The notes beneath the pieces were generated by a model. The model did no database searches, was not told where the DNA came from, and saw nothing but the letters and a program-made list of their open reading frames with translations. From UHGV virus genome UHGV-0057547: a stretch of DNA of 64,000 bases; one strand, 5' to 3'. Positions 100-61,630 of this stretch are shown piece after piece; position 1 is the stretch's first letter; the number at the start of each line of letters is the position of its first letter. Both the position numbers and the translations under genes were made by a program. Origin of the DNA: a virus.

Positions 100-520
100 A
101 TACACCATACCAATAAAATAACCACACTCTAATAAAACAACTATAAAAAAACGTGTTATTTTTGACCAATTTCAGTCTATTTTTAGCCAAAAACATACCA
201 TTTTTGACCAATTTTGGTACATTTTTGTACTATTTTTAATCAAAAATAACCATAAAATATACGATATATCATATAAAAAGTAATTATATAAAGTTATCCA
301 CAATTTCAACAAAGTTATCCACAGAATAATGTGGATTAAAAATAACGATAAATCACGAAAATATTAATATGACTATTTTTATATCCCATTAAGTCTCGTT
401 TTTATAGGGTAAATAAAAAAAATGTACGGTTAACCGAATAGGAAAAAATCCTACAAAAAATACATGGTTAACCGTACTCAAGAAATTGAAGTAAATAAAA
501 TACATGATTAATGATATATA
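100..520. promoter_or_regulatory. Putative replication origin: two consensus DnaA boxes TTATCCACA (294-302, 315-323) plus an inverted near-box (ttaatccaca on the minus strand); iterons ATTTTTGACCAATTT x2 (~162-230); repeated GGTTAACCG motif (~430-475)
   Basis: Direct sequence reading; DnaA box consensus TTATNCACA; AT-rich flanks. Confidence 0.45.
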
Positions 521-1332: not shown

Positions 1333-1637
1333 TATTTTTCTTCTTTTCTATTTGCATTTGGAATAGTTTTTGGTTCAAAATAAACATTAGTTATATTTGT
1401 TGTTATATCTTCATTATCATTCAAATCTGTTGCGTTTAAACTATATACATCTGTATAAATATATAAGTTTTTATCTTTATCATTTATTTCTTTCAATCTT
1501 ATATCACTTGTTTCAACATATAAAATTTTAAAAGAAAGGCTATGTTAGCTAACTTTGTGATTAATTATATCTAAAATAGGCTATAATATAGGTATAGACT
1601 ATATTTCAACTAATTTACAGAAAGGATACCTAATATT

Positions 1638-2684
1638 ATGTCAAAAATAGATATAAAAGCTATGATAAAAGATTTAAAAAAGAATGAACTTACAGAGTTA
1701 ATTTCAGTAGCACAAGAAGTATTAAGTACTTTATTTAATTCTTCTGAAATTAGAGATAATGTTAAAGAAAGTAGATTTTCTAAAGGATACGAGTGCCCAA
1801 AATGTCAATGTAAAGATGTAAATAAAAATGGGAAATCTAATGGAAGACAAAGATATATATGTAAACGTTGTCGTACAAGTTTTGATGAGTTTACTATGTC
1901 CCCATTCTCTAATACAAAATTAGGGTTAGATAAATGGCTAAAATACTGCGAATTAATGATATTAGGACTTTCTATAAGAAAATGTGCTGAAGAAGTAGGA
2001 GTAGGTGTTAAAACGTCTTTTTACATGCGTCATAGGATACTTGATGTAATCAATTTATCATTAAAAAATGATAAAGTTGAAGGTATAGTTGAAGTAGATG
2101 AATGCTTTATTAAGGAGTCTTTTAAAGGGAATCATTCTAAAAGTACTACATTTGTAATGCCTAGAAATCCTAGAAAAAGAGGTAAAGGTAAAAATGATAA
2201 GAAGAAAAGAGGAATATCAAAAGAGCAGATTTGTATAGAGACAGCAATTGATAGAAAAGGAAATATCCTTATGGGTGCTGTTTGTAATGGTAGAATTACA
2301 ACAAATCAAATAGTTAACTTCTTTGACAATAAAATATGTGAAGATGCTACTTTTTGTGTAGATTCACATAAATCATATATGGGAATAAAGGATAAGTTGA
2401 ACATAGAGTTAAAGCAAGTTCCTAGAGGAAAATCAATGATAGATAGTGTTTATCATTTACAGCATATAAATGCTCTTCACAGTAGCTTTAAGAGATGGTT
2501 AATGACTTTTAATGGTGTATCCACAAAATATATCAATAATTATTTGGCTTGGTTTAAATTTCTACAACTAAGTAAGAAGAATAAAAAGAATGACCGAATT
2601 AAAGATATGCTAGTGAATGTAGCTACTAAGGATACATATGTAACTAGAGCCACTATTAGAAATAGATTCATTGAATTAACATAA
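1638..2684 (+). CDS. IS1595-family (ISXO2-like) transposase
   Basis: N-terminal zinc ribbon CPKCQC...RYICKRCRTSF followed by DDE region with VEVDECF motif. Confidence 0.65.
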   Translation: MSKIDIKAMIKDLKKNELTELISVAQEVLSTLFNSSEIRDNVKESRFSKGYECPKCQCKDVNKNGKSNGRQRYICKRCRTSFDEFTMSPFSNTKLGLDKWLKYCELMILGLSIRKCAEEVGVGVKTSFYMRHRILDVINLSLKNDKVEGIVEVDECFIKESFKGNHSKSTTFVMPRNPRKRGKGKNDKKKRGISKEQICIETAIDRKGNILMGAVCNGRITTNQIVNFFDNKICEDATFCVDSHKSYMGIKDKLNIELKQVPRGKSMIDSVYHLQHINALHSSFKRWLMTFNGVSTKYINNYLAWFKFLQLSKKNKKNDRIKDMLVNVATKDTYVTRATIRNRFIELT

Positions 2685-2817
2685 AGTAAGGAACTTTACT
2701 TCAAATTAATGAAACCATTTTATAATTGGAAAACAATTGAATACTTTATATAATATAATTAAGTTCGTAATTATTATATATTGAGAATTAATTATAAATA
2801 AAAAGGGGAAATTTTAT

Positions 2818-7743: not shown

Positions 7744-8874
7744 ATGATAAAATCATTCACTATTAAATTATATCCAAATAAACAACAAGAATTATTATTT
7801 TATAAACATATTAATTGCCAAAGATATATTTATAATTGGGCATTAAATTTAAATAATGAATTGTATAAAAAAGATAAAAAGAAATATTCTTCAACAGAAT
7901 TAGGTAAAATACTAACGCAATATAAAAAGCAAGAAATTTGGTTGAATGAAGTTTCTAATGCAACATTAAAAGAATCAATTAGAAATTTAGACAAAGCATA
8001 TACTAATTTTTATAAGAAAAAAGCAAATTTACCTAGATTTAAAAGTAAAAAGAAATCTAAATTAAGTTTCTATAGTAGATATGAGAAAATTAAATTTTAT
8101 GAAAATAATAGAGTTAATTTAGAAAAAATAGGTAAAGTTAAATATAAATCTAGTTACAATATTGATTTTAGTAAAGAAACTTCATTCAAGAATCCACATG
8201 TTAGTTATAATGGTAGATGTTGGATTTTAACTTTTGCATTAGATATTGAAGATAAAATTGAGTTTTTGACAAATGAAGTAATAGGAATAGATTTAGGAAT
8301 TAAATATTTAGCAATTTGTAGTGATGGTGTTGTTTACAAAAATATCAATAAAGAAATGAAAGTTAAAAAATTAGAAAAAAGATTAAAGAGATTACAAAAA
8401 CAAGTAAGTAGAAAATATGAAATGAATAAGAAAGGAGGTCGTTACTTTAAGACTAATAATATTAAAAAGTTAGAAAAAGACATTAAACGTATTCATCGAA
8501 GACTTAAAAATATAAGATTGAACTATTTACATCAAACAACTGCTGATATTGTGAAAACCAAACCATACAGAGTTGTAATGGAAGATTTGAGTATAACTAA
8601 TATGATGAAGAACAAATCAATAGCTAAGCAAGTATCTAAATTAGGCTTGTATGAGTTTATAAGACAAATGAAATATAAATGCGAGTGGAATGGTATTGAA
8701 TTTATACAAGTAAATAGATATTATCCTTCAAGTAAAAAATGTAGCAATTGTGGAAATATTAAAAAAGATTTGAAGTTATCAGATAGAGTTTATAAATGTG
8801 ATAAATGTGGATTAGATATTGATAGAGACTTTAATGCTAGTTTAAATCTTATGAATTATGGATTATCACATTAA
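7744..8874 (+). CDS. tnpB: TnpB (IS200/IS605-family OrfB, RuvC-like RNA-guided endonuclease), solo without TnpA
   Basis: C-terminal zinc finger CSNCG...CDKCG and RuvC-III-like DRDFNASLNL; N-terminal IKLYPNKQQ typical of OrfB. Confidence 0.8.
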   Translation: MIKSFTIKLYPNKQQELLFYKHINCQRYIYNWALNLNNELYKKDKKKYSSTELGKILTQYKKQEIWLNEVSNATLKESIRNLDKAYTNFYKKKANLPRFKSKKKSKLSFYSRYEKIKFYENNRVNLEKIGKVKYKSSYNIDFSKETSFKNPHVSYNGRCWILTFALDIEDKIEFLTNEVIGIDLGIKYLAICSDGVVYKNINKEMKVKKLEKRLKRLQKQVSRKYEMNKKGGRYFKTNNIKKLEKDIKRIHRRLKNIRLNYLHQTTADIVKTKPYRVVMEDLSITNMMKNKSIAKQVSKLGLYEFIRQMKYKCEWNGIEFIQVNRYYPSSKKCSNCGNIKKDLKLSDRVYKCDKCGLDIDRDFNASLNLMNYGLSH

Positions 8875-11612: not shown

Positions 11613-11856
11613 TTCTAAACATTCTCCAAAAACCAATAATGGATAAATAAAAATCATGATAATGCCACTAAGTAAATCTAATAAACTTAAACATATATTA
11701 TATATAATTTTTATAATATCTTTTATTAAATTTATAATAATTTCAAAATGAAAATTTTTAATATATCTTTTTATAAATTTCATTCTATCAACTCCTTTGG
11801 GTTTTATATAAATTATACTAAAAATTTTATTAGAAGTAAATAATAAATAAAGAAAG

Positions 11857-12200: not shown

Positions 12201-14543
12201 TTATCCATAGACAATTACTACACCTAACCATTCTGTGGTATAAGTGAAAATAAACTCATATGTTTTATTAGCTGAAATTGTTGGAATATTTCCATTTTGC
12301 CACTTACAAGTTGGTAATGTTAAAGTTAAATCTGCTGTTGTACTAAAGAATAAATGAATTTTTGTAAAAGAAGTAACTGCTGGTAATGTAATTTCAGTAC
12401 CATTTACGATAGTAGCAGTTTGATATTTGTCTGTTGTTAATGATAAAGTAGTACCTGATATATTAGTAGTTACTAGAGTATTATTAATTTTATCGTCTAA
12501 GTATTTCTTAGTAACTACATCCATATCATCAGTAGGATTTTTACCTACAGTTAATTTACCTGCATACCAAGCATTACCTTGCCAATCTAAAGTGTGTGCA
12601 TTTGACCTTTTAGCATCACCAGCACCATTACCTACTATATGAGCATATTTATTAGCAGTATCTTCTATATTATATTTACCTTGTACATGTTGATATTTAG
12701 AAGAAGCTTTAGTATTATTACCTTCTGCATGTGAAGATTCACCTGAAGCTGTTGTCGTAGAGCCTTCTGCATGTGAACCATAATTACCTGAAGCTGTTGT
12801 ATTATTACCTTCTGCATGTGAACCATAACTACCTGAAGCTGTTGTATTATTACCTTCTGCATGCGGACCATAATCACCTGAAGCCTTTGAAGACCATCCT
12901 TCTGCATGTGAAGAATAACCTGAAGCCTTTGAAGACCATCCTTCTGCATGTGAACAATCACCTGAAGCTTCTACATCTTCTCCCGTAGTAAAACTATTTT
13001 CTCCTACTGTAGTCCCTTCTTTTCTTCCTAAACTTACACTTCCTGTAAATACTGGATTATTTGTAGTAGCATATCCATTCAAACTTTGATGTTCTGTTAA
13101 ATATTGACTATGTGTATGTGAAGTTACATCACCAGTTAATTTAGCTTCTATTTCTGCTTTAGTTATATCACTATTTTTCTGTGCTGTACTTGGTGCATGA
13201 GCTGCTTGACTATGTGTATAAGCAGCATCATAATTAGATTTTAAAGCATTAGTTAAGTCATTAGTAGATAAACCTTTACCTGTTTCTTTTTTAACGAAAT
13301 TTGAGGTATCAACAGTTGTTCCTCCTGAACCTTTATTTGCATCGAAGTATTTCTTAGTAACTACATCCATATCATCAGTAGGTTCTTTACCTACAGTTAA
13401 TTTACCTGCATACCAAGCATTACCTTGCCAATCTAAGGTATGGGCATTGGAATTTTTACCATCCTCACCATTACCAACTATATGTGCATAAGTACCATTT
13501 AAGTCTTCTATATTATACTTACCTTGCACGTGTTGATTTTGAGAAGAAGCAATAGTACTAGCGCCTTCTGCGTGAGAATTTTCTCCCGAAGCTGTTGTAC
13601 AATTACCTTCGGCATGAGAACAATATGCTGAAGCAGTCGTACTATCACCTTCGGCATGCGAAGATTCACCTGAAGCTGTTGTATATTTACCTTCTGAGTG
13701 AGAATTTTCTCCTGAAGCAGTCGTACTATCGCCTTCTGCATGTGAATAATAATTTGAAGCAGTTGTAGAACTGCCTTCAGCATGAGAAGCAACACCACTA
13801 GCTATTGTATTACTACCTTCAGCATGTGAACCATAATCACCTGAGGCAGTTGTACCTTCACCTTCTGTATGTGAACCATTACCTGAAGCAGTTGTATCAC
13901 TACCTTCTGCATGTGAATAATCGCCTGAAGCTATTGTCATAGAGCCTTCAGCATGTGAATAATCGCCTGAAGCTGTTGTCATAGAGCCTTCAGCATGTGA
14001 ATTCATACCTGAGGCAGTTGTACCTTCACCTTCTGCATGTGAACAATCACCTGAAGCTTCTACATGCATACCTATAGCACTACTTCCTGCTCCTATATCT
14101 CCTACTCTTCCTAAACTTATACTATTTTGTAATACTAAATCAGTTTCTAAATATTTACTATCTAAATATTTAACTTCTTCTTCGTAAATAACTAAATCAG
14201 TAAAAGTATTAGTAGTAATATCATTTTTACCTAGTTCAATAAGTAACATTATATTTGTTAAATCCTCAAATGCTTGTATACTATAATTGCCAATACTACA
14301 TACAATACAATTACCAATTTCTTCACTTACTAATAAAGTACATAATTTTTTACTACCTAAGAATTCTATATAATATCTTCTATCTTTATTAATAGAAACA
14401 TTATTTACAGTAATATTATCATTTAATTTTATATCACTAGCAGGTACAGTAACTAATACTTTACTAGAAATAGTTTTTATTACATTATTATCATTGTTAT
14501 TTCCATTGGTTTTATCTTCTCTAATAAACCCCATTAAATTCAT
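12201..14543 (-). CDS. Tail fibre / receptor-binding protein with two tandem SHAEG-repeat beta-helix modules
   Basis: About 25 copies of x-SHAEG-xxTTASG-xx; duplicated module ending NAHTLDWQGNAWYAGKLTVGK-PTDDMDVVTKKY. Confidence 0.55.
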   Translation of the reverse strand: MNLMGFIREDKTNGNNNDNNVIKTISSKVLVTVPASDIKLNDNITVNNVSINKDRRYYIEFLGSKKLCTLLVSEEIGNCIVCSIGNYSIQAFEDLTNIMLLIELGKNDITTNTFTDLVIYEEEVKYLDSKYLETDLVLQNSISLGRVGDIGAGSSAIGMHVEASGDCSHAEGEGTTASGMNSHAEGSMTTASGDYSHAEGSMTIASGDYSHAEGSDTTASGNGSHTEGEGTTASGDYGSHAEGSNTIASGVASHAEGSSTTASNYYSHAEGDSTTASGENSHSEGKYTTASGESSHAEGDSTTASAYCSHAEGNCTTASGENSHAEGASTIASSQNQHVQGKYNIEDLNGTYAHIVGNGEDGKNSNAHTLDWQGNAWYAGKLTVGKEPTDDMDVVTKKYFDANKGSGGTTVDTSNFVKKETGKGLSTNDLTNALKSNYDAAYTHSQAAHAPSTAQKNSDITKAEIEAKLTGDVTSHTHSQYLTEHQSLNGYATTNNPVFTGSVSLGRKEGTTVGENSFTTGEDVEASGDCSHAEGWSSKASGYSSHAEGWSSKASGDYGPHAEGNNTTASGSYGSHAEGNNTTASGNYGSHAEGSTTTASGESSHAEGNNTKASSKYQHVQGKYNIEDTANKYAHIVGNGAGDAKRSNAHTLDWQGNAWYAGKLTVGKNPTDDMDVVTKKYLDDKINNTLVTTNISGTTLSLTTDKYQTATIVNGTEITLPAVTSFTKIHLFFSTTADLTLTLPTCKWQNGNIPTISANKTYEFIFTYTTEWLGVVIVYG

Positions 14544-23482: not shown

Positions 23483-24268
23483 ATGACTGAAAAAGAATTT
23501 GTAAGGGCATTGGTAGCAGAATGTAAAAGGAATGGTTATAGAATATCGCAACCCAATGTTAAAAAAGTAATAAAATCTTTAAGAAATTTGACATTTAAAA
23601 CTTGCTTAGAAGGAGAAGAAGTTAGATTGTTAGGATTTTGCACATTTACACCTGAAGAAACAAGAGATGTAATCCTACCAAATGGAGAACATAATAAAAA
23701 GAGAACAGTCATAAGAGTAAAATTAACAGAAGTGTTTAAAAGAAGATTTAGAGATACAGCAGTATTAGTAAGAGATGGAGCTATGGATTTATCAGATATT
23801 CATTATAATATGTTTTTTGAAGATGATGAAGAATATGATGATTTGTTTGATGACTTAGACGAAGAAATAGAGGAAATAGAAGAACAGATAGCAGAATTAG
23901 AAGATGAGGACGACGAAGATGAATCAGAGGATGAGGATGATACTGACACAGGTGATGAAGAAGATACAGATAGTGAAGATGTTGAAGATGATGTAAGTGA
24001 AGAAGATAGTGACACAGATGACGATGAAATTGGTACAGAAGATGAAGAAATCATTGAAGAAGAAGACGATACAGAAGAAATGGAAGAAGACGAAGATGAT
24101 GAAAATACAGATGACGATACTGATTCTGATGATGAATTAGAAGATGAAGACGACGAAGAAGATACTAATAGTGATGAAGAAGATGAAAATTCTGAAACAG
24201 AAGAATTATTAGAAAAATTAAATAGTTTATATGAAGAATTTAAAAATAATTTAAGAGGTGAAAAATAG
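23483..24268 (+). CDS. HU/IHF-like DNA-binding protein fused to an ~150-aa poly-acidic (D/E) tail
   Basis: N-terminal 90 aa match the HU fold pattern (..LLGFCTFTPEETRDVILPNGEH..); C-terminus almost entirely D/E. Confidence 0.5.
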   Translation: MTEKEFVRALVAECKRNGYRISQPNVKKVIKSLRNLTFKTCLEGEEVRLLGFCTFTPEETRDVILPNGEHNKKRTVIRVKLTEVFKRRFRDTAVLVRDGAMDLSDIHYNMFFEDDEEYDDLFDDLDEEIEEIEEQIAELEDEDDEDESEDEDDTDTGDEEDTDSEDVEDDVSEEDSDTDDDEIGTEDEEIIEEEDDTEEMEEDEDDENTDDDTDSDDELEDEDDEEDTNSDEEDENSETEELLEKLNSLYEEFKNNLRGEK

Positions 24269-32259: not shown

Positions 32260-32401
32260 AGTCCAAAAGAAAATGTTGAAAAAGAAGAAATACTTTCCGA
32301 TGATGTCATGAAAAGTCCTCATAGAAAAAGAAGGAATTTATCCCAAAGAAAAAAAGATAGATTAAATGAAGGTATGAAAATATGGACTGCATTTTATAGG
32401 T
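32251..32401 (+). CDS. terL: Terminase large subunit, exon A
   Basis: ATG overlapping upstream stop; exon ends ttttatagg-t with P1 pairing to IGS gctta. Confidence 0.5.
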
Positions 32402-32747
32402 TAAATATTTAGCTTATTTTATTAGGTAACTAATAATCTAAACCCTTTGAATTGCTGGAAAGGACTTAGAGCCTATTGAACTACAACGTGACTAGAAATG
32501 GTGAGCGTGAATGTTTAAAAATCAATAGGATTGTTTAATCAGCAGGTAAGATTCTAAATTGCTATAAACAATATGAATAAACTTCAACGACTAGAGTTTA
32601 AACTCGTAGGCTACAAGTTATTGGTAGTCGAAGCGGAGGGCATCCTTTCATAGGATGAAGATATAGTCTGTTCTTATATGAAAATATAAGTAGTTCTTTA
32701 TTTAATAAAGAACAGTATGTATGTAGCGAATACATATGAACATTTAG
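32402..32747 (+). mobile_element. ORF-less group I intron
   Basis: Conserved 5' core (aattgctggaaagg...cagcaggtaagattctaa) directly joined to 3' core (aataaacttcaacgactag...gatatagtctg). Confidence 0.6.
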
Positions 32748-35877: not shown

Positions 35878-36834
35878 ATGTCAAAAATAATGTGGGATGA
35901 AAAATCAATAAAAAAATTTGTTGAGCAATATAATCATGAATTCATTGAAATTATAGAATTTAATAACATAAGAAGTTTAATAAAAATTAAATGTAAAAAT
36001 AAAAAACACAAACCATTTGAAATAAAATTTACATCATTTAGACAAACTATGCTAAAAAATGGAAATTCTTGCAAAGAATGTAAAAAAGAAGCAAAAATGT
36101 TAAAAAGAGAAGATGTAGAAAACCTAATTAGAGAAAGAGGACTTATTTGGCTAGAGGGAGAGTATATAAGTAATGATACAAAAAATTTATTAGTATGGTG
36201 TGGAAATATTAATCATGAACCATTTTTAACAAGTCAAAATTATATATTATGTAATAATGGTAATAGTTGCAAAAAATGTGGTATAGAAAATAATGCAAAT
36301 AACAAAAGACTTTCATATGAGTATGTATATAACTATATAAAAAATGAGGGTGATGAACTATTATCAAAAACTTATGTAAACAATTCACAAAATTTAAAAA
36401 TTAAATGTGGTAAATGTAATAATGTATTTGAAACTTCATTTGGGCACTATCAAAATAAAGATAGAAGATGCTTATGTAAAGCTCAATCAAGAGGAGAATA
36501 TGAAATTAAACGAATATTTGATAAATATAATTTAATTGAAAATGTAGATTATGAATGTCAAAAAAAATACGAAGGATTAATTGGGGTTGGTGGTAGAAAA
36601 CTTTCTTATGATTTCTATATCAATAATACATTAATAGAATATCAAGGTTCTTATCATGATGGAACTGCTAGAAAACAAACAGATGAAGGATATGAGATAC
36701 AAAAGGAACATGATAAAAGAAAAAAAGATTATGCTAAAAATAATAACATTAATTTATTAGAGATATGGTATTGGGACTTTAATAATATAGAAAATATACT
36801 TATAGAAAATTTTAATTTAAATAATAATGAATAA
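35878..36834 (+). CDS. Homing endonuclease, Zn-ribbon repeats plus DUF559/Vsr-like domain
   Basis: Same modular architecture as 34392..35327; C-terminal LSYDFYI...IEYQGSYHD...NLLEIWYWDF. Confidence 0.55.
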   Translation: MSKIMWDEKSIKKFVEQYNHEFIEIIEFNNIRSLIKIKCKNKKHKPFEIKFTSFRQTMLKNGNSCKECKKEAKMLKREDVENLIRERGLIWLEGEYISNDTKNLLVWCGNINHEPFLTSQNYILCNNGNSCKKCGIENNANNKRLSYEYVYNYIKNEGDELLSKTYVNNSQNLKIKCGKCNNVFETSFGHYQNKDRRCLCKAQSRGEYEIKRIFDKYNLIENVDYECQKKYEGLIGVGGRKLSYDFYINNTLIEYQGSYHDGTARKQTDEGYEIQKEHDKRKKDYAKNNNINLLEIWYWDFNNIENILIENFNLNNNE

Positions 36835-37086: not shown

Positions 37087-37956
37087 GTGATTGAATTGAA
37101 ATGGACTAAGGATATGGAGCAATACTTAATTGATAATTATAATAAATTAACTATTGAAGAATTAGCTAAAAATATAGGAGTAACAAAATCCTCAATAATA
37201 AATAAAGCTTTTTCATTAAAAATAACAAATAATGTTAAAAATAAAGATAGAGGAAATATTAATATATTTAAAAATATAAATTCAGAAGAAAGTGCTTATT
37301 GGTTAGGATTTATATATGCTGATGGTTATATAGTTAAAAGTGAAAATGATAAAAAACATCATAATTATGAATTAGGTATAGAACTTCAAGAATCTGATAT
37401 TTCTCATTTGAAAAAATTTAATAAAATATTTAATGATTATTATAAAATAAAAACAAGAATCAGAAAAATGGATTCATTGGATATTTTAAATGGAAATGAA
37501 GTTTCAAATAGATTAAATAAAACTTGTTTGATAAGAATATATAATAAAGAAATAGTTAATGATTTAATAAAAAATAATATTGTTCAAAATAAAACTAATT
37601 CAGATATATTTCCTATTATAGATGATGACAATATGTTTTTACATTTTTTAAGAGGATATATTGATGGCGATGGTTCTTATGTTGTTGATAGTAAAAATAG
37701 ATACATAATATCAATTCAAGGTAATAATAAAAAATGTTTTGAATTTATATCTAATAAGTTATTAACAAGTTTTAATATTAATTCATATATAACAAAAGAT
37801 AAAACAGGTTGGAAATTAAATATAAGAAAAAAAGATGATGTTTTAAAATTAATAGATTTAATGTTTAATAATTCAAATATTTATTTAGATAGAAAATATG
37901 AGAAAGTAAAAGATATGAAAAAAGCCGTCTTTAATAGAAATATTAAAGATAATTAG
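37087..37956 (+). CDS. LAGLIDADG homing endonuclease (double-motif, single-chain)
   Basis: Two LAGLIDADG motifs: LGFIYADGYI and LRGYIDGDGS; GTG start after RBS aaaggggg. Confidence 0.7.
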   Translation: MIELKWTKDMEQYLIDNYNKLTIEELAKNIGVTKSSIINKAFSLKITNNVKNKDRGNINIFKNINSEESAYWLGFIYADGYIVKSENDKKHHNYELGIELQESDISHLKKFNKIFNDYYKIKTRIRKMDSLDILNGNEVSNRLNKTCLIRIYNKEIVNDLIKNNIVQNKTNSDIFPIIDDDNMFLHFLRGYIDGDGSYVVDSKNRYIISIQGNNKKCFEFISNKLLTSFNINSYITKDKTGWKLNIRKKDDVLKLIDLMFNNSNIYLDRKYEKVKDMKKAVFNRNIKDN

Positions 37957-38325: not shown

Positions 38326-39865
38326 AATATATAGCTCCCTATGTTTATAAAAAGCATAGAAAAACTCTTTAATTGCTGGAAACTCCTAAAGTCCTATAAA
38401 CTACAACATGATTAGAAATAATGAGTGTGAATGTTACGAAAGTAGAAAAAATTATAGGAATGGTATATGGTTAAATCCTAAGTACTTTTACAATGGACAA
38501 TCAGCAGGTAAGATTTATATTTATTTTACTTTACTTTTAATAATTAATTTTGTATAATTTAAGTAAATGGAGGTGATAAAATGTTAAAATATAATAATGA
38601 TTATATTATCAATTATATAAATGAAAATTATAAAAATTTTAAAATAGTAAGTATAGATGGTAATGGAAAGGAAGCTATTGTAACTTTATGGTGTGGCGTT
38701 AGTGGTCATAAACATATACAATGCACATTTGCTAATCTTTTATATAAAGATAGTTTTCACTGTAGAGAATGTAAAAAAGATGATAAGATAAACGAAATAA
38801 AAAAGATTATAGGTGATGAATATCAAATAATCTCAATAGATTATATTAGTAATGATTGGATAAGAAGTAGAGCTATATTATGGTGTGGAATAGAAGGACA
38901 TGAATATATTGATGTATCTTTTAAATCAATAATAAATGGAAATATTATTGGATGTAAATTATGTAGAAAAAATAAACATATATTAAAAATAAAAGAAAAT
39001 GTAGAAAAAGTTAATAAAAAATTAATAGAAGTAAAAAAATATAATGAAAAAGATTATCACAAATCAAGAATAATAGTATCTTGTGGTAATGAAAAACATG
39101 AATTAATAGAGACTTCTTTAAATAAAATTATAAATTCAAACGTTAAATGTAAGGATTGCATAAAAGAAGATAATATTAATAAAATGATGCTATATATAAA
39201 TTCTACTCAATACAAATTTAATAAAATTGTAAAATATTGTGAATCAGATTATATAAAAAGTATGGTAGAAATAACATGTCCAAAAGATGAAACCCACATA
39301 TTTACAATGAGATTTTCTAATTTTAAATATGAAGGTAAAAGATGTCCTCATTGTGGTATGACTTATGGTGAACAAGAAGTTGCAAATGTATTAAAAAGAT
39401 ACAATATAAAATATAAATTTCAATATAAATATAAAGATTGTAGATTTATAAATCCTCTTCCTTTTGATTTTTATTTACCTGATTATAACATATTAATTGA
39501 ATACGATGGTAAACAACATTATGAATCAGTAGATTTATTTGGTGGAGAAAAAGGTTTTAAATATACAAAACAAAATGATGGAATAAAAAATCAATACTGT
39601 AAGAATAATAATATAAAATTAATAAGGATACCATATTGGTGTTTTAATAATATAGAAGAAATATTAATTAAAGAATTAAAAGTAAACATAAATAAATATG
39701 AATAAACTTCAACGACTAGAACGTAAGTTCGTAGGGTGTAAGTGATTGACACTCGAAATGGGAGTTACCTAATAATAGGTAGTGATATAGTCTAGTCTCA
39801 TATGAAAGTATGAGCAGTTCATAAGAGAACGTACATAACGTAGCGAATTATGTAGAATATAACGG
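38326..39865 (+). mobile_element. Group I intron carrying a Zn-ribbon/DUF559 homing-endonuclease ORF
   Basis: P1 ggagt/gctcc, P2 ctatgtttataaaaagcatag, conserved cores, P7 GACTA/TAGTC; ends ...gaatataacgg. Confidence 0.6.
38581..39705 (+). CDS. Homing endonuclease, Zn-ribbon repeats plus DUF559/Vsr-like domain
   Basis: Four Cys-pair modules; C-terminal PLPFDFYLPDYNILIEYDGKQHYE...NNIKLIRIPYWCF. Confidence 0.6.
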   Translation: MLKYNNDYIINYINENYKNFKIVSIDGNGKEAIVTLWCGVSGHKHIQCTFANLLYKDSFHCRECKKDDKINEIKKIIGDEYQIISIDYISNDWIRSRAILWCGIEGHEYIDVSFKSIINGNIIGCKLCRKNKHILKIKENVEKVNKKLIEVKKYNEKDYHKSRIIVSCGNEKHELIETSLNKIINSNVKCKDCIKEDNINKMMLYINSTQYKFNKIVKYCESDYIKSMVEITCPKDETHIFTMRFSNFKYEGKRCPHCGMTYGEQEVANVLKRYNIKYKFQYKYKDCRFINPLPFDFYLPDYNILIEYDGKQHYESVDLFGGEKGFKYTKQNDGIKNQYCKNNNIKLIRIPYWCFNNIEEILIKELKVNINKYE

Positions 39866-47737: not shown

Positions 47738-49092
47738 AACTTAGTTTACTAGACAGCCCCCTATGTTTGTAAAAAGCATAGCAAATCCTTTTAATTGCTG
47801 GAAACTCCTAAAGCTCAATTCACTACAACGTAAGGTTAAATCCTAAGCGTGAATGTTACGAAAGTAGAAAAAAGTAATTGAGATTACCCAAGGTTAAATC
47901 CTAAAGGTGAATGAATGGACAATCAGCAGGGAAGATTTTAATTAACACTTAATTTTTTATAAGTTTATGAGTATAATATAAATAAGTGGAGGTGATGAAA
48001 ATGACAAGAAAGATTTGGAATGAAATTACAATAAAAGAATTTATAGAAAATGAAACAAATTATAAATTCATATCAATGGTTAAATTAAATGGAATGAAAT
48101 CAATAGTGCTAGTATGGTGCGGTAATACTAATCATAAACCTTATAAAGTTCGATTTGATGCATTTAAAGGTACTTCTAAAAAAGAAGGAACGAGATGTGA
48201 ACAATGTAGAAGAGAAAAGGATACTATTTGGACTAAAGATGAAATTATAAAATATGTAGAATCTCAAGATTATAAATTTATAAGATTTGTAAAATTTAAT
48301 AAATATGCAAGTATAATAGAAATTCAATGTAATAAAGGACACGAATCATATGAAACATACTTTAGTAATTTCTATAATAATAGAAGATGTTTTCAATGTC
48401 ATATAATATGGTCTAAAAAAGATATTATTAATTTTATAGAATCTCAAAATTATAAATTTATAAGATTTATAACATATGAAAAAAATAATAGTTTAATAGA
48501 GATAAAGTGTCCTAAAGGACATATGAATCAAGTTAGATTTAGAAAATTTAAAGAAGGAACTAGATGCACAGAATGTAATAAGTCTAAAGGTGAGGAAAAA
48601 GTAAAAGATATATTAAAAGAAATGTGTATAGATTTTAAATCACAATACAAATTCAAAGATTGTAAATGTAAAAAAGAGTTGCCATTTGATTTTTACATAC
48701 CTTCATTAAATATTGCAATAGAATATGATGGAATACAACATTTTGAAATATTACCACATTGGGGTGGTATTGATAAACTTATAGAAACTAAAATACATGA
48801 TGAAATAAAAACACAATATTGTAAAAGAAAAAGAATAAAACTTATTAGAATTCCTTATTGGGAATTTAAAAATATAGAAAACATACTTATAAAAGAATTA
48901 GTGTTAAATTAGAATAACCTTCAACGACTAGAGCATAAGCTCGTACACTCAAGTGGGTGGAAATGGAGGATACCTAGAAATAGGTAGTGATATAGTCTTG
49001 TCTCATGTGAAAGCATGAGCAGTTCATAAGAGAACGGATTAGGAGTAACGACCCTAGTCGAAAATAAACGCAGAACTGATTTTGCTGAATGG
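47738..49092 (+). mobile_element. Group I intron carrying a Zn-ribbon/DUF559 homing-endonuclease ORF
   Basis: P1 ggggt/gcccc; P2 ctatgtttgtaaaaagcatag; 3' end ...gattttgctgaatgg fixed by frame. Confidence 0.6.
47986..48912 (+). CDS. Homing endonuclease, Zn-ribbon repeats plus DUF559/Vsr-like domain
   Basis: ELPFDFYIPSLNIAIEYDGIQHFE...KRIKLIRIPYWEF. Confidence 0.6.
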   Translation: MEVMKMTRKIWNEITIKEFIENETNYKFISMVKLNGMKSIVLVWCGNTNHKPYKVRFDAFKGTSKKEGTRCEQCRREKDTIWTKDEIIKYVESQDYKFIRFVKFNKYASIIEIQCNKGHESYETYFSNFYNNRRCFQCHIIWSKKDIINFIESQNYKFIRFITYEKNNSLIEIKCPKGHMNQVRFRKFKEGTRCTECNKSKGEEKVKDILKEMCIDFKSQYKFKDCKCKKELPFDFYIPSLNIAIEYDGIQHFEILPHWGGIDKLIETKIHDEIKTQYCKRKRIKLIRIPYWEFKNIENILIKELVLN

Positions 49093-56502: not shown

Positions 56503-59500
56503 GTGAGTGAATTTGATATAAGAATTGGTACGCAACTAGATACTAGTAAAGCGTTACAACAATTGATGGAATTCGTCAAAAAATATGACAATAAAGAAAA
56601 GATAAATATAGACATAGGCCAAACAAAAGGTGCTAATAACATAAAAAACACAACCAAAGCTATGAAAGAAATGCAAAAGATAGCTAAGGCGTTAGGAAGC
56701 ACAAAGATTGACATAGGTGGCAATATAGGTAAGGCTACTGGTGAAGCTACTAAATCATTAGAAAATAGTATAGACAAACAAGCCAAATCTATTGCCAAAA
56801 TAACTAGTAATGCACAAAGAGATTTAACTAAAGATGCTCAAAAAGGTATTGGGAATAGTCTTAAAGGTATCAATGCAGAAATGAAAGATACCCAAAGAAA
56901 TGTCGAGAGAATGATTAGTACTCTTGAACGAGCTAAGAAAGTTGAATTAATAGACCAAAAAGGTTTAGATGAAGGGTTAGCTAAATTAAAAGATATGAAA
57001 GCTAATCTTAATATAGGTAATATTGACAATGTAGAAAAAAAATTAGGGGAAGTAGCAAGTGACTATAAGAAATTAATGACAGATGCAACTAAGGAAGCAT
57101 TTAATAATGTTGAAGTATCAGGGTTATTAGAAGACTTAAAAGTTGTCAGAGAAGCTATGTCAGCTAAAAACATGGATTTAAGTGGTGTTGATACTTTAAT
57201 TTCTAAAGCTAAACAACTTACTTCTTTAAGTGTTGACCAAATGTTACAACAGTACAAAGAATTAAGACAAGTATTTAGTAAAGAATTAAAGATACCATTA
57301 GGTTTAAGTGGCATAATGAACGCTGAAACTGCAATTAAAAATGTTCTAGATTATAAAAACAAACTAACTGCTAAAGTTTCAGTTGAAACAAATTCAGAAC
57401 AAATAGATATTTTAAAAGATAAAATAATAAGATGTGATGAAGTTGTTGAACAACTTAGAGGAGATTTAAACTTAGTAGGTAGAAGTACAGCATTAAATTT
57501 AATGGAACAAGCTAATGAAAGAGAATTAGATACATTAAGCGCTAAATTAAAAAAATGTAAAAATGATTATGCTAGTTTAGAAAAAGAAAGAGAAAGATTA
57601 AATAAAGATAGTAGATACCTTGGAACAGAAGATTTAAACAACATAGAGAAACAATCATTAGCCATAAAGAAAAACCTTGATAGTTTAAATGTTGGAAATT
57701 TAAATACTGATAAAATAAATAAAGTTACTGGTGACATAGATAATTTAAGAAAAACAATAGAATCAACTGGTAATTCAGCTAAAAAATTAGATATAGAAGC
57801 AACAGTTAAAGTAGATATGAAAAATGCTCAAGACCAATTAAATGGTATGTATTCTGCTTTAATAAAATCTAATAAATCTACCGTAATGGTTAAAAAATAT
57901 AAAGATGAATTAGAAGGATTATTTGATTTATCTAAGACTAACCCAGGTGTAGCACTAGACAAAATAAGTGGTTTTATAGAAAAAGTAAATAAAGAAGCCA
58001 AGAATAAAGGTTTAGGTAAAATAACTGGTGGTTTAGACCAATACAAACAATACTTAAAAGATTATGAATCATTAGTTAAAAAAGCTAGTGGTACTACTGA
58101 TATTGGTTTTGCAAAAGCTTACAAATCAGAAGTTACACAAATAGAAAAAGCATTAGACCAATTAGAAAGTGGATTTAACCAAACTCAAAAATCTATGGCT
58201 AAATCTTTGAGATTAGAGTCAATTAATAAGAATACTCAAGAATTTATTAATCAAGTTGAGAAATCTATTAAGAAAACTCAAGAATATAAAAAAGAATTAC
58301 AAACTCTTAATAATGATATAAATTTTGATGGTCTTACTTCTAAATTAGGTCAAAAAGTCAAAGAAGAATTTGACGGAATGATTAATAAAACTAATCAATT
58401 AGAAAAAAGACTTGGCAATATGTTATCATCAGGTAACATAAATACTACTGAACTATCTAAGTTAAAATCAGAACTTGAAAGTACTTTTTCCGGACTTTCT
58501 AAACTTAAGGATACTAGTATAAAAATTAAAACTGATGAAACTGTATCAGGACTTAATAAAATCAAAAAAGATTTAGAAACATTAGGACAAGATACTAGTC
58601 AAATAGAAAGAGTTATTAACGCATTAAAAGAACTTAAAGCCAATTTCAATGGTGGTACAGCAGGTTATAAAGAATTAGCCAATGGAATAAAATCTATTGG
58701 AAAAGATAATAACTTAGAAAAACTAAATAGTTCTTTAGAAAAATCAGTTAAGAAATTTAATAACTTAGCTAAAGCTGTCGGAGAACTAAAGGTTAAAAAT
58801 ATAGGTAATATAGACCAAGGTGCTTTTCAATCTTTAGATAGTCAAGTTGCACGAATACAATCTCATATAGAAGGTTTAAATAAAAATGATATATCTTTAA
58901 TAGATGTTAAAAAAGTTGAAGCAGAAGTAAATGAATTAAGCAACTGTGTAGAAAAAATGAGTAGTGAATTAACTCAATATAGTAAATATTTGGAAGAATA
59001 TAAAAGATTATCTAGTCAAGCAGGTAAAACAAATGATGTTAATTTAGCTACAAAATATCAACAAGAAGCAGAAGGTATAAAAGGTGTATTAACTCAATTA
59101 GAAAGTGAGTTTACACAAGCTCAAAAATCTATTGCTCAAGGATTAAAAACTGATGCTTTCTCTAATGCTAATGAAAAAATGTCTTCTGAAATTAATAAAT
59201 CAATTAAAACAGTTGATAATCTTAAAGAAAAACTTAATACATTAGATAAAGATGTACATTTTGAAAATATGACATCTGAATTAGGTAAAGAATTAAATAG
59301 TCAATTTGATACTTTAGCTAATAAAGGTGAAGAATTAAAAGATAAATTAAATAAAATATTAGCATCTGATAACGTAGATATTTCTGCTTTAAGTAAAATT
59401 AAAAAAGAAATAAGCGAATTTGCAAGTGAAGTTAATAATTTAAAAAATTCTGCAATGGATAATGTTATTAGAGAATCTTTTGATAACATTAAAATACCTA

Positions 59501-61630
59501 ATTTAAATAAACAACTAGAAGCCGTTAAAGATTTAATGTCACTTAAAAATATGGACACTAGTGGTATAGATACTTTAATAGAAAGAACTAAAAAATTATC
59601 AAGTTTAAGCGTAGATAAAATAGGTCAAGAGTTTAAGGAAATACAAAATGCACTTGGTAAAGAAATTAATTTACGTTTAGGTTCTAGTGGTATCAAAGAT
59701 ATAGAATCTGCATTAAAAGTTATATTACAATATAGAAATGAATTAAAAAATAAAATAGCAGTTGAAACAGATTCGTCAAAAGTAAAAGACCTTAATAACC
59801 AATTAGAAAAAACTGAGAATATAATAGAAAAGCTTAAAGGTCAAACTAGTGGTGGACTTGGTGCAAGTTTAATTAGCGATGCTAATAATAATAACTTAAA
59901 ACAATTAGAAGATACTGCTAATGGATTAGAGAAAACATTCTCTAATTTAGAAAATGAAGTAAATAAATTAAACAGCGAAGCATTGAATAAGGTTGACATA
60001 AGTCAATTAAGGGAAATGAATGAAGTTGTTAATGATGTAAAGAAAAATTTAGCATCTATTGGAGAAGGAAATGTTAATGTTGATTCAATAAATAAAACAG
60101 CACAAGATATAGAAAAATTAAAAAGACTAATAGAAAACACTAAAAAGACAATTAGTGATATGAAATTAGAAGTTTCATTTAATATTAAATCAAATGAAGC
60201 AGAACAATATTTAGCAGGTTTTGAATCAGCTTTATTAAGATTAGGTAAATCAACTAGTGGAATAAATGATTTAAAAAGTGAATTTGAAAGTATAAAAAAT
60301 TCAGCTAACGGAAATTTAAGTAGTGCCATAAAAATGATTGATGACTTTATTAATAAATTAAAACAAATGGGTAGCAAACAAGGTCTAGGTAATATAAGTG
60401 GTACTATATCTCAATATAAACAATATGCTAAAGAATTACAACAAGCTATGAGTGGAGCATTGAAATCTAGTGGTTCTGATACAGCTAAAGGATTTGAACA
60501 ACAAGCTGATAGAATAAAAAATGCTATGCAACGTTTAACTTCAAGTTTCAAAGAATCACAAAGAGAATCGGCTAATGCTTTTAACAGTAGTTCATTTAGT
60601 GGTTTTTCTTCTAAATATGAAGCTGAAATAAATAAAGTTGAAAAAAGTATAAACAGATTTAAATCATCAATGCAAAATTTAGATAAAGCTGTAAACTTCA
60701 AAAGTTTCCAAAGTGATGTAGGTAGAGGTTTATCTGAACAATTTGACCAAATAATGGCGAAAGCCGAACAATTAAGAGATAAACTAAAGAGTGCATTATC
60801 TTCAGGTACATTTGATATAAGTGAAATAAATAGAATAAAAGATGAATTAAAACAAGTTGAACAAGAAGCAGATTCATTAAAACAAAAATCTATTGTATTG
60901 AAATGTGCCGAAAGTATATCTGAATTAGAAAAGCTTAGTAGTAAACTAAGAGATATAGGTGGAGATACATCACAAATAGACAGATTAAGAGATGAATTTG
61001 TTTCACTTGGTTCAGGTATAAAAGAGGGTACTGCTGGAATAGATGATGCAATTTCTAAACTGAAATCTTTATCTTCGGAAGCACAAAGAACTTTTAGTTC
61101 TTTTGAATCATCTACTGGTAAAATAGGTTCTTTTGGTTCTAAAATACAAGGTTTCTTTGGTTCTATTAAGGATTCATTTAGGAATTTTACTATTGGTGAA
61201 TTAATGGCTGATGGTATAAATCAAGCTGTTTATCAAATAAAAGATACTATATCAGGTTTAGATGAAGCAATGTCCGAATTTAAAAGGGTTGCTCCTGATA
61301 ACTTTAGTTTAAACACATCTAACTTACAAAGTGTTGCTAATGAAGCAAGAGAAATAGGTATTAGTGTTGGGCAATCAGTAGAAGATGTTATCACTGGAAT
61401 GAGTACTGCATTACAAGCTGGTGCAGGCGACATTAAAACAGCTTCTGAAATAGCTAAAAGTTCTGCTATATTCCAAAATGTTACAGATATGGATGCAAAA
61501 AGTGCCTCAAAAGCTATTTCTTCAATGGTTAACCAATATTATGATATGGATTCAGCATTAAATCAAGTTGACCACGGTGTAGGTAAATCTGTAAAAGGAT
61601 ACAATAACTTAACTGAAGCGATGGATTTGG
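56503..61630 (+). CDS. Tape measure protein, exon 1 (about 1709 aa; internal approximately triplicated coiled-coil module)
   Basis: Length, coiled-coil repeats, position; ORF read-through of 11 codons into the intron; P1 tggt/gccg. Confidence 0.6.

Follow-up and report, generated by a model that had tools for sequence, protein, structure and literature searches.

The 64,000-nucleotide stretch of virus genome UHGV-0057547 analyzed here (hereafter the window) carries, near its left end, a tight cluster of three DnaA boxes embedded in a conserved non-coding block at positions 125-525. The surrounding element is a ~204-kb temperate SPbeta-like phage of gut clostridia, and the cluster is, judging from comparison with related sequences, a genuine, selected and high-affinity putative DnaA-binding module of that phage. 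The kind of element is already known, namely DnaA boxes clustered on the replicon of a phage or plasmid. Its function is best captured, tentatively and by analogy, by a single reading: theta-type replication may start at the block with the help of DnaA, the block being either the whole origin or its DnaA-dependent part.

Boxes 1 and 2 lie on the plus strand at 294-302 and 315-323, respectively. Each is a perfect TTATCCACA set within an exact copy of the 13-nt repeat AAAGTTATCCACA (290-302 and 311-323), and the two are 21 bp apart start-to-start with 12 bp between them, just as an initial annotation of this DNA had described. The inverted near-consensus box of that annotation was likewise found: box 3, on the minus strand at 330-338, reads TAATCCACA, matches the consensus at 8 of 9 positions and converges with box 2 over a 6-bp spacer. 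Boxes 1 and 2 are the only perfect boxes in the window and in 73 kb of contiguous assembled sequence, and a survey of ~120 kb from the phage and close relatives adds just one more perfect box, an isolated one. With 0.88 perfect boxes expected per 64 kb, a first-order Markov model puts the chance of two falling within 50 bp at about 6 × 10⁻⁴, a figure that describes the pair of perfect boxes alone and leaves the third box out. Three boxes with at most one mismatch fall in the cluster, the next one being 490 bp away, and the triple-box cluster is single, no second copy being present across at least 120 kb. The cluster is not a product of chance.

Conservation profiles drawn first from 7 and then from 16 related sequences delimit the non-coding block, a feature without strand, and show that both of its flanks are variable. 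The DNA from -175 to +125 varies (negative positions lie to the left of the window), and the genes to the right of the block are wholly different among relatives. All three boxes are invariant, box 1 in 16 relatives and box 2 in all relatives. Selection on them was assessed with 11 related sequences that had been gathered without reference to the boxes. In this set, none of the 27 box positions is variable, versus 4 of the 18 spacer positions (P=0.02), and with 59 of 299 positions variable over the whole block the chance of finding zero among 27 is 0.002. The 6-bp spacer between boxes 2 and 3, for example, occurs as GAATAA, AGATAA and GAATGA. A metagenome scan keyed solely on the arms of a terminator to the right of the boxes (described below) recovered nine more relatives, all of which carry both perfect boxes at an unchanged distance. 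Because the boxes are invariant while spacers and neighboring positions vary, they appear to be under purifying selection, and their exact match to the universal DnaA site of highest affinity leads us to infer strongly that host DnaA would bind them.

Conservation extends beyond the boxes themselves. The stretch AAAAATAACGATAAATCA (339-356, no strand) adjoins box 3 on its right, and no column from 329 to 356 is variable among the 16 sequences; it may be a further protein site. In a scan of viral contigs, all five of the contigs with the invariant flank at 339-358 also carry the boxes. The right edge of the block, ATAAAATACATGATTAATGATATATAAAA (495-524, no strand), is conserved among relatives as well.

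To the left of the boxes, a phased array of ~14 A/T tracts recurring every ~10.5 bp occupies 131-291 and was recognized, without regard to strand, from its A/T-tract periodicity. No stronger 10.5-bp periodicity occurs in the 73 kb: its power reaches 0.81, where the mean is 0.035 and the 99th percentile 0.164, and each of the 12 highest-scoring windows of that sequence falls in the array. The array holds four 21-bp units (158-241), two of which share the 15-mer ATTTTTGACCAATTT (158-172 and 200-214). The initial annotation had taken these repeats for iterons preceding the boxes. The repeats are present, but their iteron nature is doubtful: they appear to act as phased A/T tracts, and in the most divergent relatives (L001, L159 and L163) one copy has drifted apart from the other with the A/T tracts kept. 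Because the 15-mers diverge in relatives while the A/T tracts persist, we read 131-291 as putative intrinsically bent DNA rather than initiator-binding repeats, two readings that are compatible with one another.

The phased array abuts the boxes, and a 40-mer of low stability lies between array and box 1. This least stable duplex segment, at 252-292 and directly 5' of box 1, is a candidate unwinding region. Its nearest-neighbor free energy over 40 bp (-37.4 kcal/mol) ties for the top within -4.5 to +2 kb and stands at or above the 99th percentile of the 73 kb. On the 3' side of the boxes (339-412), duplex stability is about average.

The block also contains, on the minus strand at 415-477, an intrinsic terminator for leftward transcription. 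It consists of a 12-bp stem (466-477 paired with 424-435) and an inner hairpin (439-453), followed by a U8 run (the complement of A415-A422). Folding of the minus-strand RNA from 477 to 415 gives a free energy of -26 kcal/mol (z = -4.4), and none of 200 shuffled sequences is as stable. The repeated GGTTAACCG motifs that the initial annotation placed after the boxes do exist, as CGGTTAACCG at 427-436 and GGTTAACCG at 466-474, but they turn out to be the two arms of this hairpin stem. The variable minus-strand cargo genes on the right stop just before the terminator, which would serve these genes and probably shields the boxes from read-through.

Identification of the element relies on the assembly and on gene content. 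The window corresponds to positions 96,086-160,085 of ENA ERZ1310023 NODE_1 (204,438 bp); other samples yield near-identical contigs of 204,413 and 204,517 bp, and the contigs of the phage are permuted relative to one another. The cluster thus lies inside a ~204-kb phage genome, and the suggestion that it might be a chromosomal DnaA-regulated site next to the element falls away. A genome terminus near the cluster, suggested by an apparent distance of ~620 bp to the edge of a viral contig of 198 kb, was considered and rejected, since the locus is internal (contig 89784-92330) and the contigs are permuted. The window has 24-29% G+C and a phage-like gene content. Its minus strand encodes an IS605-type TnpB, a RecD2-like helicase and lysis genes, and its long plus-strand arm encodes the portal, the tape-measure protein and further structural genes. 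The SPbeta structural families YomW, YomV, YomN and YomX are found among the called genes in precomputed Pfam results (window 50-56 kb, corresponding to L167 1-4707).

Genes to the left were read by walking through IMG/VR relatives, a walk that covered 48 kb on the left and 8.5 kb on the right beyond the window. The leftward walk passes small early genes, anti-repressor-like genes, a DNA ligase, a Sak4-like AAA_24 ATPase and DNA methylases. Relatives place three sigma-like genes left of the block (L156 16484-19569) and two paralogues of MrpR, the SPbeta master repressor, beside a tyrosine recombinase (L173 11381-14255). At ~204 kb the phage is well above SPbeta (134 kb) in size. The host is probably Clostridium perfringens or a relative, judging from base composition and an IS1595-family insertion sequence (IS) element at window 1538-2787 that is 98% identical to ISCpe8 on a C. 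perfringens plasmid. The ~200-kb SPbeta-like clostridial phages constitute a lineage not described before. Searches for close relatives in annotated phage, plasmid and GTDB genome collections returned only IS and intron matches, and a 49-mer returned no genome match. The sole DNA matches to known phages and C. difficile plasmids are intron-like pieces.

How might such a module start replication? Under the origin reading, host DnaA would bind the three high-affinity boxes at 294-338, and 160 bp of static curvature together with the low stability of 252-292 would favor local opening. Host helicase-loading proteins, possibly with a phage factor, would then start replication, and inward-facing terminators on both sides would prevent transcripts from entering. 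An origin would suit the joint presence of boxes, putatively bent DNA, a segment that melts easily and insulation from transcription. Little transcription is expected across the site, which a strong terminator bounds on the right. The site also lies where the minus-strand early arm and the plus-strand late arm diverge, and inside the broad trough of the cumulative GC skew, which extends from -3000 to +7500 with a minimum at -2639 in the 73 kb.

We prefer a DnaA-assisted origin because iterons, DnaA boxes and repA stand together in a distant relative, the circular 196,981-bp C. botulinum plasmid pNPD1_1 (NZ_CP013295.1), a phage-plasmid. The plasmid's structural proteins are collinear with those of the phage and 26-37% identical to them, and its ligase is 42% identical. 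The iteron origin of pNPD1_1 (L184 21620-23010) comprises 4-5 copies of the 21-bp TTATCAYTAGATTACATTGTA, then three DnaA boxes, then repA. The boxes lie within 80 bp and are co-oriented, two of them are perfect, the last overlaps the repA start codon, and the gene that follows is annotated as 'replication initiator protein A'. The record table of the plasmid does not list this iteron origin as an origin. Iteron-plus-DnaA-box origins are also known from P1 oriR, pSC101 and F oriS. The phage block resembles such plasmid and phage-plasmid origins in its high-affinity boxes, its AT-rich segment and its short direct repeats at a period of two helical turns, and it resembles pNPD1_1 in belonging to a large temperate clostridial phage-like replicon with three boxes, two of them perfect. 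Unlike iteron origins, however, it is bordered on both sides by non-coding DNA or cargo genes with no adjacent Rep gene. Such origins carry at least three near-identical direct repeats that stay alike within a genome; of the four 21-bp units in the phage only two share the exact 15-mer, and these copies do not stay identical in relatives. The box layouts differ too, with two tandem boxes and one convergent box in the phage versus three co-oriented boxes in pNPD1_1. An origin, as the initial annotation proposed, stands as the likeliest single function for conserved boxes in a phage element, but without an adjacent initiator and probably without true iterons.

A number of observations weigh against an origin. 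No initiator gene is adjacent, and none was recognized when 48 kb on the left and 72 kb on the right were searched, with ~80 kb of the genome lying outside this search. The initial annotation suggested looking upstream of the window for a neighboring rep or dnaA gene; what lies there is 3.6 kb of non-coding DNA followed by 48 kb without a recognized initiator; the lack of an adjacent initiator within the accessible sequence is one of the findings that the annotation itself had named as speaking against an origin. Over its 48 kb on the left and 8.5 kb on the right, the walk through relatives likewise found neither a helicase or polymerase for replication nor an initiator. A tblastn search for a homologue of the pNPD1_1 RepA in ~125 kb of phage and close relatives (~80 kb of genome outside) returned none. 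The pNPD1_1 origin is downstream of the ligase gene, and the syntenic position in the phage has neither iterons nor boxes. SPbeta itself (NC_001884) lacks a perfect DnaA box or box cluster in all of its 134 kb and, according to its record annotation, has its own replicative helicase and polymerase. Since SPbeta has no perfect box, a DnaA-box origin would therefore be a lineage-specific acquisition and not a family trait. The SPbeta record also shows, at 59152-60834, a 1.7-kb stretch from yonK to yonN without an annotated feature. The GC-skew analysis put forward in the initial annotation was run and is uninformative, because GC and AT skew track the coding strand. At third codon positions the skew is -0.01 for left-minus, 0.14 for right-plus and 0.09 for right-minus genes, values that do not clearly follow a replication-bias model.

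The architecture of bacterial origins adds to these points. The basal unwinding system (BUS) comprises tandem boxes at most 3 bp apart, at least three DnaA-trios (3'-NAN-5') within 16 bp 3' of a box, and an AT-rich unwinding element beyond the trios, 3' of the TTATCCACA boxes (PMC8287927). In the phage, boxes 1 and 2 are 12 bp apart, and no run of DnaA-trios follows any of the three boxes under either a strict or a permissive rule, although 47% of randomly chosen sites in the genome satisfy the latter. The least stable DNA is 5' of the tandem boxes, versus 3' in oriC, the side being taken from the E. coli oriC sequence and from PMC7561715. The BUS/DnaA-trio model was rejected on all three counts of spacing, trios and unwinding side. 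Finally, stable in vivo DnaA sites of B. subtilis, the DnaA-box clusters (DBCs), hold at least four clustered boxes with at most one mismatch and are intergenic (PMC2533591); the phage cluster has three boxes only, though it is intergenic.

The arrangement of two tandem boxes and one convergent box is not confined to this phage. At least 120 bacterial genomes (L035-L154) contain the pattern TTATCCACA-N10-14-TTATCCACA-N4-10-TGTGGAT. The dnaA gene falls inside the 8-kb locus in at least 42 of the 120 loci and, among the loci listed, mostly ends a few hundred bases from the boxes. Some 20 unrelated viral contigs from IMG/VR (L005-L028), ranging from 28 to 67% G+C, contain the same pattern; its gene neighbors there include primase-helicase, DnaB, terminase, portal and ArdA genes, and none of these neighbors encodes DnaA. 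In contig L022 the pattern is 50 bp from a Prim-Pol/D5_N primase-helicase gene, and in L024 it is inside an open reading frame (ORF) directly upstream of a DnaB helicase gene, both of which are typical places for a phage origin. The triple-box pattern looks like a recurrent DnaA-assembly module. The phage cluster shares this pattern with many bacterial loci near dnaA and is intergenic like the B. subtilis DBCs; unlike oriC modules it is located on a phage, has no dnaA or dnaN nearby and lacks DnaA-trios.

The boxes sit at the right edge of a 4.1-kb control region that is almost free of genes and rich in repeats (L002 10763-14896, equivalent to window -3563 to +570) and that encodes only two ORFs, of 53 and 66 aa. 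This control region has the early genes on one side and, on the other, the genes for cargo, lysis and late functions. Small early genes would be transcribed leftward from four TTGACA-17-TACAAT promoters in tandem (L002 14102-14440). TGTATAC-type repeats form arrays that recur with periods of 7, 14, 21, 42 and 70 bp, all multiples of 7, and are accompanied by many TGAAYA-N-TATTCA-like palindromes such as ATATGAACAGTTATTCATAT. By analogy with the repeated elements of SPbeta, the palindromes may be operators for the MrpR-like repressors. A non-coding region of this kind is lacking in L033, a more distant relative of 262 kb and 42% GC.

Several other functions for the module compete with an origin. 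One, a serious rival though less likely than an origin, is that the block is a docking site for DnaA that serves something other than initiation: titration of the protein as phage copies accumulate, an effect like that of datA or of a DnaA-reactivating sequence (DARS), an element that promotes ADP release from DnaA, or tethering of the incoming or resident genome to membrane-bound DnaA as proposed for the injection-stop (iss) region of T5. The lack of an adjacent initiator and of DnaA-trios, and the ability of SPbeta relatives to replicate without such a cluster, are as expected for a site of this sort. In topology the boxes agree with the core of E. coli DARS1, which reads TTATCCACT, 5 bp, TGTGGATAA, 3 bp, TGTGTATTA, with boxes I and II opposed and boxes II and III in tandem: in reverse complement, the phage shows box 3 pointing right, 6 bp, box 2 pointing left, 12 bp and box 1 pointing left. 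As in DARS1, the box in the middle matches the consensus fully and the one that converges with it has a single mismatch; unlike in DARS1, where the third box is degenerate, the third box here is perfect. Spacers of 6 and 12 bp nevertheless depart from the 5 bp (I-II) and 3 bp (II-III) that are highly conserved in DARS elements (PMC6868365). Three boxes per genome would moreover form a weak titration sink unless copy number is high, and we know of no DARS-type control by nucleotide exchange in Firmicutes. The comparison with T5 cuts both ways. T5-like phages carry conserved DnaA boxes away from the mapped origins, in a large untranslated, bent region that is rich in repeats and palindromes and lies by the pre-early genes; the T5 iss region is conserved above the neighboring ORFs; and its approximately eight boxes, in pairs 3 bp apart and in two inverted-repeat units 52 bp apart, have been proposed, as a hypothesis only, to arrest DNA injection via membrane-bound DnaA (bioRxiv 10.1101/866236). 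The phage cluster shares with iss its conserved boxes at the edge of an untranslated, repeat-rich region with bent DNA, next to small early genes with strong host-type promoters in tandem. In contrast to the eight paired boxes of T5, however, it is one triple cluster, and T5 is a virulent phage of Gram-negative hosts with long terminal repeats, in which its box region lies, and with DNA injection in two steps, whereas the present phage is a temperate, SPbeta-like phage of Firmicutes. Unlikely, yet related, is a stand-alone module for capturing host DnaA, a DARS-like triple joined to a static bend that, again without being an origin, would let the phage manipulate or read the host initiator. 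Its possible uses would be titration or remodeling of DnaA to reprogram host replication, sensing of growth state in the choice between lysis and lysogeny, and anchoring of the genome at the membrane, as hypothesized for T5.

Two further explanations seem improbable to us. A transcriptional switch or roadblock controlled by DnaA could couple the phage decision to the growth state of the host, for instance through the promoter-like site TTGACC-18-TACTAT at 204-233, 60 bp upstream of box 1. Small DnaA-box clusters of B. subtilis control the adjacent genes sda, ywlC and yydA (PMC2533591), and a sensor of host state makes sense because the phage is temperate and has MrpR-like repressors. Yet the block holds 4 promoter-like sites versus 6.1 expected in shuffled sequences, and both hexamers of the 204-233 site are altered in divergent relatives; a promoter reading of the block was rejected on this basis. 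Downstream of the site there is no ORF of at least 40 aa and no Rfam match on either strand, and the nearest plus-strand feature is the back of the terminator. A small-RNA reading of the block was also rejected, Rfam giving no match above noise in a 4.5-kb region. Equally improbable is a relic of a plasmid-type cassette of iterons, boxes and rep from which rep was lost or replaced by variable cargo genes, leaving boxes that are now functionless or bound by a phage protein. The full cassette on pNPD1_1 and the position of the block beside a gene-replacement hot spot lend it some plausibility. Against it stand the invariance of the boxes amid varying neighboring positions (P=0.002-0.02) and the sharp bounds of the conserved island in 16 sequences from different samples, which point to a current function; two exact boxes of the highest-affinity type are also hard to explain by the specificity of another protein. 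A DnaA-assisted origin is still the reading that we favor, at the tentative strength given above.

The hot spot just mentioned is the DNA to the right of the block, where the window has a GT92 glycosyltransferase gene and the IS1595 element, and L159 and L163 have genes for proteins of 1079 and 547 aa. Proteins of 319 and 470 aa encoded near the block gave no informative sequence matches in PDB. The variable cargo region also contains the IS605-type TnpB gene, with a Cas12f-like TNB domain, at 7744-8874. Further along, a 780-aa gene on the minus strand (window 12201-14543) has 34% G+C in a genome of 24% G+C and matches phrog_25468, with a faint match to YadA-head repeats; it may be a recently acquired adhesin or fiber gene. 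An HU-like protein is encoded at window 23483-24268. A group I intron (window 32392-32690; Rfam 92.8 bits) and homing-endonuclease genes of the HNH and LAGLIDADG types (35878-36834, 37087-37956, 38581-39705 and 47986-48912) break up the packaging and structural arm.

The control region holds two more features. Its two ORFs belong to a pair of paralogous plus-strand cassettes at L002 12035-12196 and 13560-13760 (window about -863 to -702 and -2427 to -2227), each made up of a ~55-bp leader with promoter and ribosome-binding site (89% identical between the two), a tiny ORF and a terminator; the 53-aa product is hydrophobic, and the other is the 66-aa ORF. A G-rich segment at L002 ~11660-11800 (window about -470 to -330) repeats GGGGA(A/T)TT units every ~10-11 bp in a genome of 25% G+C and also contains the inverted repeat GTGGGTCGAAAAAAGTCCCAC. 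It is a candidate packaging (cos/pac) site or other site of protein assembly.

To the best of our knowledge, how SPbeta-like phages start replication has not been worked out, and no origin or initiator of such a phage turned up in the literature searched. In this clostridial lineage the candidate element is compact, at 400 bp, and open to cloning, footprinting and mutagenesis. The pattern of two tandem boxes plus one convergent box is, in addition, a useful search key that recovers phage and bacterial loci in many phyla. If host DnaA were being captured for purposes other than initiation, recurrence of the triple box in unrelated phages would mark a widespread phage strategy. A non-origin function in general would make the block a Gram-positive counterpart of the T5-like DnaA boxes, and the phage would then act on the host initiator by means of DNA instead of a protein. 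If instead the block is an origin, as we tentatively favor, these ~200-kb gut phages would depend on host DnaA, a dependence that would constrain both their host range and their lifestyle, including plasmid-like maintenance.

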